A program made the translations under genes and the position numbers. DNA of 36,193 nt, taken from UHGV virus genome UHGV-0315046; one strand, written 5' to 3'. Positions within the stretch are counted from its first letter, which is position 1. Each line of letters starts with the position of its first letter. The notes below the pieces were generated by a model, which did not search any database, was not told the DNA's origin, and was given only the letters and a program-made list of their open reading frames with translations. Of the stretch, positions 3,625 through 34,427 are shown piece by piece. Source of the DNA: a virus.

Positions 3625-3686
3625 GTCAATATTTCCTAATCCGATTTGTTGATACCGAAGCCCTGACTGTTACAGCAGTTGGGGCT

Positions 3687-3878
3687 TCAACTTTTATCAG
3701 CGACTTCAACTGGAATACTCTCTAGCTTTTCATCTAACCCCTTCTCGCCATGCATGAAAATAACAATATCTGTAACGCATGAGTCACAAATTGCTTCTTC
3801 GGTATTTTTTGACACAACAAAGCCCCTGCCAGTCGTTTCTTTACTACACCCACAAAAACAACATCTGCGGTTTTTCAT
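3687..3878 (-). CDS. Small Cys-rich (zinc-ribbon-like) protein between arc and ant
   Basis: 63-aa ORF with CCFCGC...CDSC (CxxC...CxxC); its ATG overlaps the arc stop as ATGA, suggesting translational coupling. Confidence 0.45.
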   Translation of the reverse strand: MKNRRCCFCGCSKETTGRGFVVSKNTEEAICDSCVTDIVIFMHGEKGLDEKLESIPVEVADKS

Positions 3879-4027
3879 ACCACTACCCCCTCTCTCTTCA
3901 GGCTGTCCAGCAATCGCTTAATCACTTCCGAGTTAAACGACCGGCATTCTTCTTTGGCCTTTCCTGTAATCGCATCTTTTAGCGACTGAGGCATTCTCAC
4001 CAAAATTCTGCTAACTTCTTTTTCCAT
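3875..4027 (-). CDS. arc: Arc-like ribbon-helix-helix repressor
   Basis: Start refined to the internal Met (MEKEVSRILVRMPQSLKD...) preceded by GGTGG. RHH pattern hydrophobic-R-hydrophobic-P...NGRS-NSE resembles P22 Arc; divergent to mnt. Confidence 0.7.
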   Translation of the reverse strand: MEKEVSRILVRMPQSLKDAITGKAKEECRSFNSEVIKRLLDSLKREGVVV

Positions 4028-4136
4028 ACCGCCACCATGTGAGTTATTGTGAATCACAAACATATCACTGTGACTATATCAAGTCAAAATTTTTTTGAAT
4101 ACACTGTGATATCAATGTGATTATCACGGTGTAAGT
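4028..4136. promoter_or_regulatory. Divergent Pant/Pmnt promoter-operator region
   Basis: 109-bp spacer between divergent arc and mnt starts containing palindromes TTGTGAaTCACAA, TGATATCA and GTGATtATCAC, consistent with Arc/Mnt operators. Confidence 0.5.
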
Positions 4137-4391
4137 ATGACGAAGGTTAGAGACATAGCCCCATATAGCGTAAGAATGCCAGATAGCCTCAAGCGCGACC
4201 TGACCATAAGAGCATCGAAAAACGGACGCTCATTAAATTCAGAAATAGTTATGATCTTGCAAGCTGCTATTGATGAAGAAAAATCACCAAGATCAATAGA
4301 AGGTTTTGCTCAACAAGAATCTGAAAAATTTAGGGAGGCTCTTCTTAAGACTCTCAGTAGCATGTACGGAGAAGATAAAAAACCCACCTGA
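4137..4391 (+). CDS. mnt: Mnt-like ribbon-helix-helix repressor
   Basis: 84-aa ORF; N-terminal RHH (YSVRMPDSLKRDLTIRASKNGRSLNSEIV) resembles P22 Mnt in length and motif. Confidence 0.75.
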   Translation: MTKVRDIAPYSVRMPDSLKRDLTIRASKNGRSLNSEIVMILQAAIDEEKSPRSIEGFAQQESEKFREALLKTLSSMYGEDKKPT

Positions 4392-4399
4392 CGGCGGGT

Positions 4400-4849
4400 T
4401 TAGTCAAACATAGTGTTTCTAAAGTCTCTCGCATACCCTGCTAACACTCTCATTCTATTATGATTGTTAGCAGACATGTGAGCTACAGGATGAAAAAGAG
4501 CAATCAATGAATACCTGTTCTCATCAAAAAGATTTTGTGCATAAACGAGAGCGGTATTGGATGTTTTATGCCACTGCAACTTTTGCGGTGTGCTGATATC
4601 TGTGCCATTTTTTATTGGCTCAAATTTATTTTCACCAATTGCTAAATGAAGGTGCATAAGACCTGCATCTTCAATATCAGGAGGACGATGATAAGAGGTG
4701 TCTCTGCCAAAATAGCTGGGCAACGTTCCCGTAGACTTGTAGATGATAAAATCATCTACAAGTGTTTGTTTTAAATCAGGAAACTCAACAAAAACCGGGG
4801 AGAAAAAATAGTCAAAACTATCCTGATTATATTCCACGGTTACTTGCAT
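4400..4849 (-). CDS. YafO-like toxin candidate (ribosome-dependent mRNA interferase family)
   Basis: 149-aa ORF. Motifs DFIIYKSTGTLPSYFGRD, MHLHLA, ALVYAQNLFDE and NNHNRM align with my recollection of E. coli YafO; not verified by search. AT-rich relative to flanking structural genes. Confidence 0.45.
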   Translation of the reverse strand: MQVTVEYNQDSFDYFFSPVFVEFPDLKQTLVDDFIIYKSTGTLPSYFGRDTSYHRPPDIEDAGLMHLHLAIGENKFEPIKNGTDISTPQKLQWHKTSNTALVYAQNLFDENRYSLIALFHPVAHMSANNHNRMRVLAGYARDFRNTMFD

Positions 4850-31015: not shown

Positions 31016-31121
31016 ACCAAAGAGTAGTTGGCTTTGGGGTGACGTGAAGTGCAGCTGCACGACGGCAACCGGAAGATAAGCCCCGGCGCGTCACCGCCAA
31101 AGTCAATCATCGGAGGTCAAC

Positions 31122-31421
31122 ATGACAGTAGTCATTACATATCTGGCTGACGATAACGCCAGAAATCGCCGCAGAGCACGCAGACAGGCTCAACGTGAGC
31201 AGGTAATGCAAGAGCAGCGACTGGCGCGAAAAATTGCGCTAAAGCTCTCTGGTTGCGTCAGAGCAGACAAAGCAGCATCACTCGGAAGCCTTCGCTGCAA
31301 TAAGGCAGAAGAAGTCGAGCGTAAACAGAACCGTATTTACTACCGAAAGCCACGCAGTGAAATGGGTGTGACTTGTGTTGGTCGCCAGAAAATGAAATTA
31401 GGCAGCAAACCACTTATTTGA
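31122..31421 (+). CDS. N: N-type transcription antiterminator
   Basis: 99 aa; arginine-rich N-terminal motif (NARNRRRARRQAQREQ); C-terminus RIYYRKPRSEMGVTCVGRQKMKLGSKPLI resembles the lambda N C-terminus. Confidence 0.8.
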   Translation: MTVVITYLADDNARNRRRARRQAQREQVMQEQRLARKIALKLSGCVRADKAASLGSLRCNKAEEVERKQNRIYYRKPRSEMGVTCVGRQKMKLGSKPLI

Positions 31422-31429
31422 GGTGAGAT

Positions 31430-31900
31430 ATGACAAAATCATGGAGCGTACCTTTTCCTGAATCAGAAACTGAACATGATGGAATGCCTGTTTTCTGGAG
31501 ATTCCAAGCGACAGTTGAAGAAGATGGAATCAAAATATTCGCACTTCAATATATAGCTTTTCATCAGACAGAGCATTATGCATGGTTGGTTCCTGCGCAT
31601 TGGATTGTTGATTTTAAACCAGCACCAAATCAGTGGTTACAGGAATGGAAACAAAGGAGAAATAGATATGCAATTAAGAAAGTAGCAAAAAATGCAGAAA
31701 GATCTTTTGCATTCCCAACGAAGAAACTTGCCATTGAGAGTTTATTGCGCCGGAAGAAATACCATTTAATGAGAATCAAACAAGATTTTGCTGTTGTATC
31801 AACTCTTGTTGATGGGATGAAGAATATTGATACATCAACACCAGATATTGAATATAACTTTGGACACAACCAAGAAACAGAAAATTGGGTATTCTACTAG
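31430..31900 (+). CDS. Hypothetical early-left protein (moron candidate in the ral/sieB slot)
   Basis: 156 aa, starts 9 bp after N with GAGGTGAG upstream; Trp/His-rich N-terminal half, basic middle; AT-rich; followed by a terminator. Confidence 0.55.
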   Translation: MTKSWSVPFPESETEHDGMPVFWRFQATVEEDGIKIFALQYIAFHQTEHYAWLVPAHWIVDFKPAPNQWLQEWKQRRNRYAIKKVAKNAERSFAFPTKKLAIESLLRRKKYHLMRIKQDFAVVSTLVDGMKNIDTSTPDIEYNFGHNQETENWVFY

Positions 31901-31930
31901 GCCGCATAGTCGGCCTTTATTTTTGGCATA
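31899..31930 (+). terminator. Intrinsic terminator (tL1-like)
   Basis: Hairpin AGGCCG-catagt-CGGCCT followed by TTATTTTT. Confidence 0.55.
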
Positions 31931-31940
31931 AACAACAGAG

Positions 31941-32225
31941 GTGGATATGAAAGAGTTTAAGGGTACGCCTGGTAAATGGAAGTACACGGTTAGAAACGTC
32001 AACGAGATGATGACTACGTTCCATGGTGTGACGATTGGTGACACATACATTGAAGCAGCAACAAGAAATGAAAGGGAGGATGCGCTACTGATAGCAGCAG
32101 CTCCTGATTTGCTTGAAGCACTGCAAGAGCTTGTCTTCCTTTACGAGCATGACGAAGGGTGCAGAGAGTTAACCGAATACAAACGAGCCAAGGCAGCAAT
32201 CAGCAAGGCTCTGGGAGGTGAATGA
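31941..32225 (+). CDS. Small hypothetical protein, paralog A of an EFKGTPG-W family
   Basis: 94 aa; shares EFKGTPGxW, (I/T)AAAP(D/E)LLEALQ and AIxKALG with the ORF at 32892-33134. Confidence 0.55.
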   Translation: MDMKEFKGTPGKWKYTVRNVNEMMTTFHGVTIGDTYIEAATRNEREDALLIAAAPDLLEALQELVFLYEHDEGCRELTEYKRAKAAISKALGGE

Positions 32226-32434
32226 TGTGCGAGTTTTATGAAGCAGATATCAAACGCCCAGAAATGGCAAGTGATGCGACATTACGTGATTACTTCGCTG
32301 CTAAGGCTATGGCAGCAATAGTGCGCAGATGGGACGGACATTCCTTTGGCGGTGGACAGAATTCACCACAGTACAAAGAATTAGCAGATGATGCCTACTT
32401 TATTGCTGATGCCATGCTCAAAGCTCGCGAATAA
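32222..32434 (+). CDS. Hypothetical protein
   Basis: 70 aa, ATGA-coupled to the upstream ORF with GGAGGTGA upstream. Confidence 0.45.
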   Translation: MMCEFYEADIKRPEMASDATLRDYFAAKAMAAIVRRWDGHSFGGGQNSPQYKELADDAYFIADAMLKARE

Positions 32435-32527
32435 GCACTGTGTATTCATTCCAACGAGTGAATACACGGAGCAATGTCGCTCGTAACTAAACAGGAGCCG
32501 ACTTGTTCTGATTATTGGAAATCTTCT

Positions 32528-32556
32528 TTGCCCTCCAGTGTGAGGGCCTTTTTATA
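32528..32556 (+). terminator. Putative intrinsic terminator upstream of cIII
   Basis: Hairpin CCCTC-cagtgtg-GAGGG followed by CCTTTTTAT. Confidence 0.4.
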
Positions 32557-32619
32557 TGCATACCAATAACGCTTCACTCGAGGCGTTTTCGTTATGCAAT
32601 CAAATATAAGGAGTTACCC

Positions 32620-32754
32620 ATGATGCACTTTCAGCTCGCGGGTAGCGGCGTCATGTCCGCTTTCTACCCGCACGAATCTGAATTATCACGCCGAGTTAAA
32701 CAATTAATCAGAGCAGCAAAGAAACAACTGGAGGCGTTATGCACAATGAAATAG
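32620..32754 (+). CDS. cIII: CIII-like protease inhibitor
   Basis: 44 aa from the internal Met with TAAGGAG upstream; amphipathic helix ESELSRRVKQLIRAAKKQL resembles lambda CIII (ESLLERITRKLRDGWKRL). Confidence 0.55.
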   Translation: MMHFQLAGSGVMSAFYPHESELSRRVKQLIRAAKKQLEALCTMK

Positions 32755-32888
32755 CCATTAATCACCAGATGCTTCGTGCTGCACAGAACAAAGCAGTAAT
32801 AGCCCGATTTATTGGTGATAGTGAAATGTGGATGTCAGCCTACAACGATATGAAGGCGGCAATTGGTTTTCCGTGGCACAGGAAGTGA
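32739..32888 (+). CDS. kil: Kil-like small protein (host division inhibitor candidate), below the ORF-track length cutoff
   Basis: Hand-translated 49 aa: MHNEIAINHQMLRAAQNKAVIARFIGDSEMWMSAYNDMKAAIGFPWHRK; FIGD motif and position after cIII resemble lambda Kil; overlaps the cIII end. Confidence 0.45.
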   Translation: MHNEIAINHQMLRAAQNKAVIARFIGDSEMWMSAYNDMKAAIGFPWHRK

Positions 32889-32891
32889 GTT

Positions 32892-33134
32892 ATGAGCGAA
32901 TTTAAAGGAACTCCCGGTCCGTGGTTTTGGGATGAAGAGGGCTTGGGAAACAAGCATCACATAGTCTTTGGAAAGGGATATCCACTTGAAATGACGAGCA
33001 AGGAAAACAAGACTCTCATTACTGCAGCGCCTGAATTACTGGAAGCTCTGCAGGCTGTAGTTAGAGTAGCAGACCGTCAAACAGATGAGTTTGATATGGC
33101 TCGTTCCGCCATCGACAAGGCACTCGGCAAGTAA
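32892..33134 (+). CDS. Small hypothetical protein, paralog B of the EFKGTPG-W family
   Basis: 80 aa; see paralog A for shared motifs. Confidence 0.55.
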
Positions 33135-33213
33135 ACCACACCAAACACCCATTACCCCTACTCGTCCGGCTATCGCAGACGGGCAGCGCACAACCAAATT
33201 TCAGGAGCCTATT

Positions 33214-33510
33214 ATGGCTGCATATCTCGTTCAAGACCGTATCGAGGCGCAGAACTGGACGCGCCATTATCAGCAAATAGCCAGAGAAGAGCGTGAATCT
33301 GAACTGGCTGATGACCTCGAAAAAGGATTGCCACAGAGCAAACTGGAATCGTTGTGCGTTGACGAGTTGCAACGTCGCGGGGCCAGCAAGAATGCCATTT
33401 CCAAAGCATTCGATGATGACGTCGAGTTTCAGGAAAGGGCCGCTGAATTTATTCGCTACATGGCAGAGACAATTGCTCGCCACCAAACAGATATTGATGA
33501 GGGACAGTAA
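33214..33510 (+). CDS. gam: Gam (RecBCD inhibitor)
   Basis: Start refined to [41 protein letters not shown] with CAGGAGCC upstream; close to lambda GamS as recalled. Confidence 0.85.
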
Positions 33511-33512
33511 CG

Positions 33513-34427
33513 ATGAGCATGAGCATTGTTGAGTTCGTTAAACAGCAAGAGCCGCTCTTTGTTGGGGCGGTTACAGACCAATCAGTCACATGGGCTAAGG
33601 AAAGCCAGTTTGCAATTCAGTATTTCCAGAAAAATGATTACCTGGCTAAAACAGCACTGGCAAATCCGACCAGCGCACAGAACGCTATCATCAACGTTGC
33701 GGCGATCGGCATCACCTTAAACCCGGCCAGCAAACTGGCTTATCTGGTTCCGCGCGACGGCATGGTTTGCCTTGATATCAGCTATATGGGATTGCTCCAT
33801 ATTGCAATGGAGTCTGGTGTTATCTCATGGGGTCAGGCAAAACTTGTTCATGCTAACGATACCTATGAGTCAAACGGGCTTGATAAAGCACCAACCCATA
33901 AATACAACGCCTTCGGTGATCGTGGTGATATCGTTGGCGTTTACTGCACAGTTAAGACGCCAGCAGGTGATTATCTAACGGAAGAGATGAGTCTGGCTGA
34001 AATTGAGGCTGTAAGGAAAACAAGCAAGGCAGCATTCAGTGATAAAGGACCATGGGTAAATCACTGGAATGAGATGGCGCGAAAGACGGTCGTAAAGCGT
34101 GCAAGCAAGTATTGGCCTAAGGCATCACGTCTTGATAGTGCTATTCACGTACTAAACGAAGAAGAAGGTGTGTGGACTGAACCAGTTATGCCGCACAAAT
34201 CAGAGGAAGATATCCGCGAAGATGAACGGAAACGCCAGCAGGAAATTATGGAAAAAGCACAACTTCTTTGTGATGAAATGGCTCAGGCAGAAAACATGGA
34301 TGATTTGAAGCGATATTTTTCAGAAGCATATCGCCTGACATCTGGAATGAAATTGCAGCAGAACGTACAAGCCATATACATAGAATGCAAAGCGAAACTG
34401 GAGGTTGCCAGTGAGCAAACTGTATGA
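33513..34427 (+). CDS. recT: RecT-family single-strand annealing recombinase
   Basis: 304 aa; motif GPWVNHWNEMARKTVVKRASKYWP resembles the conserved RecT C-terminal motif; sits at the bet position after gam. Confidence 0.75.
   Translation: MSMSIVEFVKQQEPLFVGAVTDQSVTWAKESQFAIQYFQKNDYLAKTALANPTSAQNAIINVAAIGITLNPASKLAYLVPRDGMVCLDISYMGLLHIAMESGVISWGQAKLVHANDTYESNGLDKAPTHKYNAFGDRGDIVGVYCTVKTPAGDYLTEEMSLAEIEAVRKTSKAAFSDKGPWVNHWNEMARKTVVKRASKYWPKASRLDSAIHVLNEEEGVWTEPVMPHKSEEDIREDERKRQQEIMEKAQLLCDEMAQAENMDDLKRYFSEAYRLTSGMKLQQNVQAIYIECKAKLEVASEQTV

Follow-up and report, generated by a model that had tools for sequence, protein, structure and literature searches.

Two diverged members of the phage protein family PF27050 lie in separate mosaic cassettes of a P22-like PL operon

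The closest described counterpart of the genes considered here is orf78 of phage P22, which encodes an uncharacterized protein of 78 amino acids and 8,623 Da and lies between ral and gene 17 in the order ral-orf78-orf87-17. We analyzed two relatives of orf78, both members of the family PF27050, in the PL operon of the virus genome UHGV-0315046, a stretch of 36,193 nucleotides that we call the window and whose positions are used throughout. The 2.2 kb around the two genes is 99.8% identical to Escherichia phage Dewey (PQ850600), a P22-like Lederbergvirus and temperate podovirus whose isolation host was E. coli K-12 with its O16 antigen restored, and the name Dewey is used for the locus below. 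The first gene, copy 1, most likely occupies positions 31947-32225 and encodes 92 amino acids; the second, copy 2, occupies positions 32892-33134 and encodes 80. Both are on the plus strand. P22 orf78 resembles the two copies in size, in acidity and in its three conserved blocks, of which the N-terminal one is degenerate (KDIPHW, within the opening residues MKDIPHWDV) and the C-terminal one reads ARAAIGKALGKE. It also occupies the same N-to-cIII slot as copy 1. Unlike P22, Dewey has two family members, the second in the kil-to-gam slot, and the variable segments between their conserved blocks (V1 and V2) differ from those of orf78.

A second described relative, gp34 of Shigella phage Sf101 (AII27858.1), forms with gp33 a gene pair like that of copy 1 and its downstream neighbor orf70: stop and start codons overlap, and the pair, again in a P22-like phage, occupies this PL slot next to ral, in the order ral, family member, orf70-like gene. 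Gp34 differs from copy 1 in having another V1 and a V2 of type 5, and it is the single family copy in the part of Sf101 that was examined. Silas et al. picked this member (UDP0123) and its orf70-like neighbor (UDP0057) from a high-scoring accessory region for their set of 200 synthesized accessory genes, and according to that study accessory regions such as these hotspots are rich in anti-defence genes (bioRxiv 10.1101/2023.04.06.535777). The two copies further share operon, timing, small size and a non-core mosaic distribution with Ral, P22 gp17, Gad1, Gam, Abc2, Kil and CIII, and both Gad1 and ral occur directly beside family members. In one E. coli prophage (CP146665.1; locus L095) the order is DUF7446, family member, orf70, Gad1 (PF25705, E=6.5e-68), cIII and kil. 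Since Gad1 (Gabija anti-defence 1; positions 3633-4607 of that locus) directly follows the PF27050-orf70 pair and precedes cIII there, the N-to-cIII slot hosts a proven anti-defence gene in some prophages. Comparison of the Dewey copies with characterized inhibitors (Gad1, Ral, Ocr/ArdA, Abc2, Gam and similar proteins) revealed neither sequence nor fold similarity.

Profile searches placed both copies in PHROG 1273 ('unknown function'), copy 1 with E=6.8e-24 over profile positions 2-100 of 103 and copy 2 with E=3.6e-19 over positions 3-100. Every homologue retrieved by the large protein searches carries a precomputed assignment to PF27050.1, whose family name is Phage_P22_Y8K6. These include a protein identical to copy 1 (P0001), which is present on 310 contigs, and two close relatives of copy 2 (P0121, 99%; P0122, 93%). 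P22 orf78 matched hidden Markov models (HMMs) of the family, built from relatives of the window proteins, with E=2e-12 and 5e-11, and its mass and name lead us to infer that 'Y8K6' in the Pfam name denotes this uncharacterized 8.6 kDa protein. Local scans of both copies against Pfam-A, NCBIfam and PADLOC returned no family, PF27050 being newer than the Pfam copy used. The preliminary description of this DNA, which had been made from the sequence alone, did not recognize the family; it is in fact catalogued and has P22 orf78 as a member, although its function is still unassigned, and searches of the literature on PF27050, Y8K6, PHROG 1273, P22 orf78 and the motif strings yielded no study of its function. 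The copies are two more members of a catalogued, uncharacterized family, in a published phage genome.

Judged from their sequences, copy 1 and copy 2 are homologous and anciently diverged. Pairwise BLASTP found 36 identities in 90 positions (40%, E=9e-17), and these fall in exactly the three blocks that the preliminary description had named and whose significance it had put up for checking by alignment: an N-terminal EFKGTPGxW, a central LIxAAP(D/E)LLEALQ and a C-terminal AIxKALG. The divergence that it had noted at the DNA level was likewise confirmed, as blastn detected no significant similarity between the two genes. For the 25 identical block residues, codon positions 1 and 2 match in 25 of 25 cases and position 3 in 9 of 25, so that it is the protein sequence of the blocks that is conserved, with saturation at synonymous sites. 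The central block, LIAAAPDLLEALQ in copy 1, is encoded by codons 32088-32126, and alignment with copy 1 places its counterpart in copy 2 at 33015-33053. A six-frame scan of the window with the family HMM found just these two copies (E=9e-33 and 5e-42; next best 0.056). They lie 670 bp apart in the same operon and, as previously described, on either side of cIII and kil (PF08134 and PF06301); their isoelectric points (pI) are 5.2 and 5.3. The listing of open reading frames (ORFs) gives copy 2 the extent used here and starts copy 1 at GTG 31941 (31941-32225, 94 amino acids). This start would add two codons, and because all homologues begin M-(K/S)-E-F-K-G and GenBank annotates ATG 31947, the 92-residue form is most likely the true one. 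Taken as a whole, the locus is probably best explained as a pair of PF27050 genes brought in by separate mosaic cassettes, from a family that shuffles its segments and whose members would act as binders.

Structure prediction gave a compact model for copy 1 (AlphaFold2, 25-sequence alignment; mean predicted local distance difference test score, pLDDT, 84.5), with an N-terminal coil that holds the KGTPGxW block, strands at residues 14-19, 26-32 and 35-38, and helices at 44-52, 54-69 and 78-90. In the model of copy 2 (78 sequences; mean pLDDT 75), helices 37-44, 46-59 and 65-77 match those of copy 1, and a helical turn spans residues 32-35. This check, which the preliminary description had called for, gave matching helices in the two copies, with a weakly defined N-terminal beta part in copy 2. 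A Foldseek search against all PDB chains yielded nothing below E=0.85, a sequence-profile search of PDB nothing below E=0.3, and the neighbors found in BFVD were only uncharacterized phage proteins of about 100 amino acids. The three conserved blocks frame V1, a predicted beta-meander, and V2, which comprises helix 2 and its connection to helix 3. Across alignments of 25, 78 and 111 sequences the invariant or nearly invariant columns hold W, L, I, A, P, L, L, L, I, A, L and G, that is, nearly all hydrophobic or small residues, arranged as the W of the N-terminal block, L-I-xx-A-P-x-L-L-xx-L and I-xx-A-L-G. In the central helix they form an i, i+1, i+4, i+7, i+8, i+11 stripe. Such a pattern suggests that the invariant residues build a core or an interface and are not catalytic.

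We propose a scaffold protein in which the conserved blocks would make up the folding core, perhaps also a dimer interface, and V1 and V2 would be exposed surfaces that bind host proteins. The proteins might serve as accessory factors of host takeover or counter-defence. As genes of a lambdoid PL operon, the two copies are expected to be delayed-early, made once N allows read-through of the flanking terminators. The two Dewey copies would bind different targets, given that they differ in both V1 and V2; in this respect the distinct targets invoked by the preliminary description are plausible. Position next to ral, gp17, Gad1 and gam makes it conceivable, and we put it forward tentatively, that PF27050 is a small scaffold with variable surfaces for binding host factors, among which immune or takeover targets are the most likely, and that the specificities of the two Dewey copies differ.

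Several points weigh against this proposal. The literature search brought up no functional evidence for any PF27050 member, and in mosaic early operons the position of a gene is a weak guide to its role. Non-lambdoid phages, too, have members, placed in long arrays of small early genes that are unannotated and make the context uninformative. The division into core and surface derives from sequence pattern and secondary structure, and the N-terminal beta part of copy 2 was modelled with low confidence (pLDDT about 62). Finally, UDP0123 and UDP0057 were among the 200 genes tested by Silas et al. but are not named among the counter-defence or cell-death hits in that preprint (bioRxiv 10.1101/2023.04.06.535777) or in the later paper PMC12373910; as the screen covered few host-phage pairs, this negative evidence is weak.

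Alternatively, the copies could be accessory factors of phage recombination or replication, for example modulators of Gam, RecT/Erf or SSB, and not antagonists of host defence. Copy 2 and its relatives do lie directly upstream of gam or erf modules, and the same-strand neighbors within 2.5 kb of family members include an unannotated 235-amino-acid family read as single-strand annealing protein (SSAP)-like (15 loci), RecT (9 loci) and SSB (9 loci). However, the copy-2-type gene is joined to modules that are unrelated to one another (Gam and RecT; Gam, an unannotated gene and YqaJ; Arf-like, ERF and SSB), members in the N-to-cIII slot are far from recombination genes, and others occur in phages without a nearby recombinase. 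The extreme variability of two segments is also unusual for a partner of conserved recombination proteins. We therefore regard this alternative as a lesser one and distinctly unlikely.

The variable segments themselves have been exchanged between relatives of the two copies. In alignments of enterobacterial members, V1 and V2 appear as discrete types that cannot be aligned with one another. When 175 sequences were split at the blocks and the segments clustered at 50% identity, 15 V1 types and 39 V2 types were found in 61 combinations. The V1 type of copy 1 pairs with 17 V2 types and that of copy 2 with 30, eight V2 types being common to both, and the V2 type of copy 2 is combined with 15 V1 types. 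Natural chimeras of the Dewey pair are known in both reciprocal forms, V1-0 with V2-1 in 5 sequences and V1-1 with V2-0 in 1 sequence. The 175 sequences were gathered by similarity to two queries, which inflates the row and column of those queries and counts against our reading; the shared V2 types are not explained by this bias. One crossover could be mapped. Over gene nucleotides 1-161, copy 1 is identical to an allele that is common in E. coli prophages (P0085; locus L092). Next come differences that are only synonymous, within the codons of AAPDLLEALQ, after which the two sequences are unrelated up to position 32428, beyond orf70. Because the identity ends within these codons, the crossover falls inside the central block, at about 32107-32125. 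On this sequence evidence, V1 and V2 reassort among relatives, with one crossover mapped inside central-block codons, a feature of the family that is new in this analysis. Strict co-variation of V2 with the downstream gene was also considered and rejected: V2 type 9 is followed by orf70 or by an unrelated gene of 62 amino acids, and orf70 follows V2 type 0 or type 9.

Of the top 150 hits, 8 contain a second matched stretch, which adds to the first unit either another full unit or a helical half with LIAAAPxLL...AIAKATG. These tandem forms, all metagenomic, are P0237, P0251, P0271, P0272, P0295, P0335, P0369 and P0382. Their existence suggests autonomy of the helical half, which may self-associate, and proteins of two units would fit units that associate with each other. 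A bolder form of our proposal, about which we are doubtful, is that PF27050 is a combinatorial binder scaffold, with a hydrophobic core, exchangeable V1 and V2 segments and motif codons as crossover points, that acquires target specificities against host defence or takeover targets by module swapping; since tandem fusions exist, its units might act as dimers. If this were true, a phage with two paralogues such as Dewey could form heterodimers and thereby widen its target range.

The exchange inside the central block also raises the possibility that the conserved blocks are kept mainly as DNA recombination linkers and that the peptides they encode have little function of their own. Lambdoid phages use short conserved boundary sequences, boundary linkers are seen in this very locus, and V1, V2 and the downstream gene assort independently. 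However, between the Dewey copies the blocks are conserved at the amino-acid level only, as third codon positions show (9 of 25), the motif has been kept in intact ORFs across 77,225 diverged clusters, and AlphaFold2 gives copy 1 a confident compact fold. Recombination within the blocks is better read as a by-product of protein conservation among close relatives, and we consider the linker explanation very unlikely.

The preliminary description interpreted the two genes as an old duplication maintained on both sides of cIII and kil. Our comparisons did not bear this out: each copy belongs to a separate cassette and occurs without its partner in other phages. Compared with HK97, copy 1 and orf70 form a clean insertion of 519 bp (31909-32427), with HK97 homology running to 31908 and resuming at 32428. 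Phage mEp213 has copy 1 only, at 97% DNA identity over 31898-32227, followed by a different gene, and homology to mEp213 and to L092 begins at 31898 and 31899, respectively. Phage CurroJimenez (Bas106) has copy 1 and orf70 at 99% identity, without copy 2 and with a different recombination module. Terminator-like hairpins bracket the copy 1 cassette. Its left boundary is a conserved linker (31899-31939, hairpin at 31899-31916), and the right boundary of the copy 1-orf70 cassette is an intergenic linker (32435-32587, hairpins at 32530-32547 and 32568-32587) where HK97 annotates a terminator; both features are on the plus strand. These short linkers look like module boundary sequences for mosaic exchange, coinciding as they do with the junctions of copy 1 and orf70. 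In mEp213, the linkers 31899-31939 and 32435-32553 each recur at two places with 95-100% identity, and 32469-32536 also recurs.

Copy 2 has a history of its own. It follows kil and precedes gam in a Citrobacter freundii prophage (L089; 89% identity over 32757-33518), and in a metagenomic phage (L090; 86%), where a KilR-type gene precedes it and Arf-like, ERF and SSB genes follow, the homologous stretch is exactly 32892-33219. Megablast matches to HK97 and E. coli prophages end at about 32831, inside kil, which suggests a module junction near this position; blastn extends the HK97 match to 32891. We conclude that lambdoid PL operons offer two accessory slots, slot A from N/ral/gp17 to cIII and slot B from kil to the recombination genes, which family members fill independently in different phages, and that Dewey combines both through mosaic recombination.

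A duplication within this lineage, with both copies kept for distinct targets, is therefore largely refuted, and we rate it marginally below even the linker explanation. The copies are homologous, close together in one operon and different in both variable segments, and multi-copy states do recur, with two or more family genes within 6 kb in 7 of 80 viral loci. However, each copy stands alone in other phages, with junctions at gene borders, synonymous sites are saturated, and the closest relatives of each copy are found elsewhere, at 60-99% identity compared with 40% to the partner copy. Because of these relatives, the split between copies 1 and 2, as read from the sequences, predates Dewey and represents divergence at the level of the family, not a duplication kept in place. 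The co-occurrence check suggested by the preliminary description gave no further example: none of 5,426 complete E. coli genomes holds at least 80% of 31930-33140, and among phage records only Dewey covers the entire region. That the shared motifs are a chance similarity of two unrelated ORFs, for which nothing speaks other than the shortness of the proteins, has a negligible probability, given the BLASTP E value, the end-to-end match of both copies to an independent profile and the same precomputed Pfam family on near-identical proteins of both.

The presence of two PF27050 genes in one phage is an ordinary finding; it is the family that deserves attention. Searching 1.84 billion cluster representatives (50% identity level) with a 25-member profile yielded 77,225 clusters at E<=1e-3 and 1,501 at E<=1e-10, which makes PF27050 one of the larger uncharacterized small-protein families of tailed phages, without a solved structure or a structural neighbor. 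With copy 2 alone as query, tblastn found members in 97 cultured-phage records, from phages of Salmonella, Klebsiella, Escherichia, Proteus, Vibrio, Aeromonas, Pseudomonas, Xanthomonas, Azospirillum and other hosts, and some members lie outside any lambdoid PL setting. In the broad set, the proteins are mostly 80-120 amino acids long and acidic (median pI 4.85, 86% below 6). No fusion to other domains was seen among the top hits of the profile search and of the broad-profile homologue search. The latter returned PF27050 as the sole domain and only the name 'hypothetical protein', apart from two evidently spurious enzyme names from the Joint Genome Institute (JGI), and a cluster look-up of distant and tandem members gave no names. 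Since the family is present in P22 and in the culturable E. coli K-12 phages Dewey, CurroJimenez/Bas106 and mEp213, its role is directly testable, and Dewey with two copies and CurroJimenez with one offer a natural comparison.

An identity with the Ead/Ea22-like proteins (PF13935) was considered and rejected. No PF13935 match was obtained at E<=0.1, hhalign of the family profile against P22 EaD gave a probability of 0.6%, and the same loci carry Ead_Ea22 genes as ORFs of their own. What the two families share is only their status as lambdoid early-left accessory genes of unknown function. ORF019 of Pantoea phage PA-1 (L086, 3498-3779) is a PF27050 member annotated as 'EaD/Ea22-like family protein', a label that profile comparison does not support and that appears to be a mis-annotation.

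The gene downstream of copy 1, orf70 (32222-32434, plus strand, 70 amino acids), belongs to PHROG 2201 (E=1e-19) and carries the motif TLRDYFAAKAM...AYxxADAMLKARE. Its ATG overlaps the TGA stop codon of copy 1 (ATGA), so that the two genes are translationally coupled. Homologues of orf70 adjoin PF27050 genes in about 9-10 of 80 viral loci; the same arrangement is seen in E. coli prophages, in Sf101 and at loci L094 and L095. Like PF27050, they make up a widespread family of small proteins to which no function is assigned, and they may be its functional partner. In CurroJimenez, the copy 1-orf70 pair is followed by a gene of 322 amino acids, for which a Gad1 identity was rejected as it has no Pfam match; among these loci Gad1 takes that place only in L095.

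On the plus strand, the order of the region is a cI-type repressor gene, a promoter-like site, an N-like gene, a gp45-like gene, a hairpin, copy 1, orf70, two hairpins, cIII, kil, copy 2, gam, recT and a Gp157-like gene. The first gene of the PL operon (31122-31421; start at 31095 in GenBank) is annotated in Dewey as 'anti-termination protein N-like' and has an arginine-rich N terminus, and N_peptide Pfam matches sit at the equivalent position in related loci. It is followed by a gene of 156 amino acids (31430-31900; phrog_1636, E=3e-111) that matches HK97 Gp45 and a protein named 'gp17' in the H-19B record. This is a conserved PL accessory gene whose homologues RefSeq labels 'DUF2528 / superinfection exclusion protein'. 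Between the two cassettes lie cIII (32620-32754; E=2.1e-30) and kil (32739-32888; PF06301, E=1.6e-15; phrog_2055, E=1e-30), the latter with the putative mosaic junction in its 3' part. Directly after copy 2 comes gam (33214-33510; PF06064, E=5e-51, aligned over 1-95 of 98), the 98-amino-acid form of which is the first recombination/anti-RecBCD gene downstream; RecT and Gp157 follow. All of these genes are on the plus strand.

Three details of the annotation were noted in passing. GenBank starts gam at 33085, so that it overlaps the 3' end of copy 2 by 50 nucleotides in another frame; the Pfam match begins at ATG 33214, and the long form (33085-33510) may be over-extended. Dewey CDS0041, a hypothetical ORF of 31 amino acids (32474-32569, plus strand), lies wholly inside the conserved linker and terminator region and is probably not a gene. 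The N region looks chimeric: 31018-31313 is 98.7% identical to the gp47 region of mEp213 (HK620-type N), and 31341-31432 is 90% identical to the end of the second N gene of mEp213 (gp51), the PL operon of that phage carrying two N-like genes.

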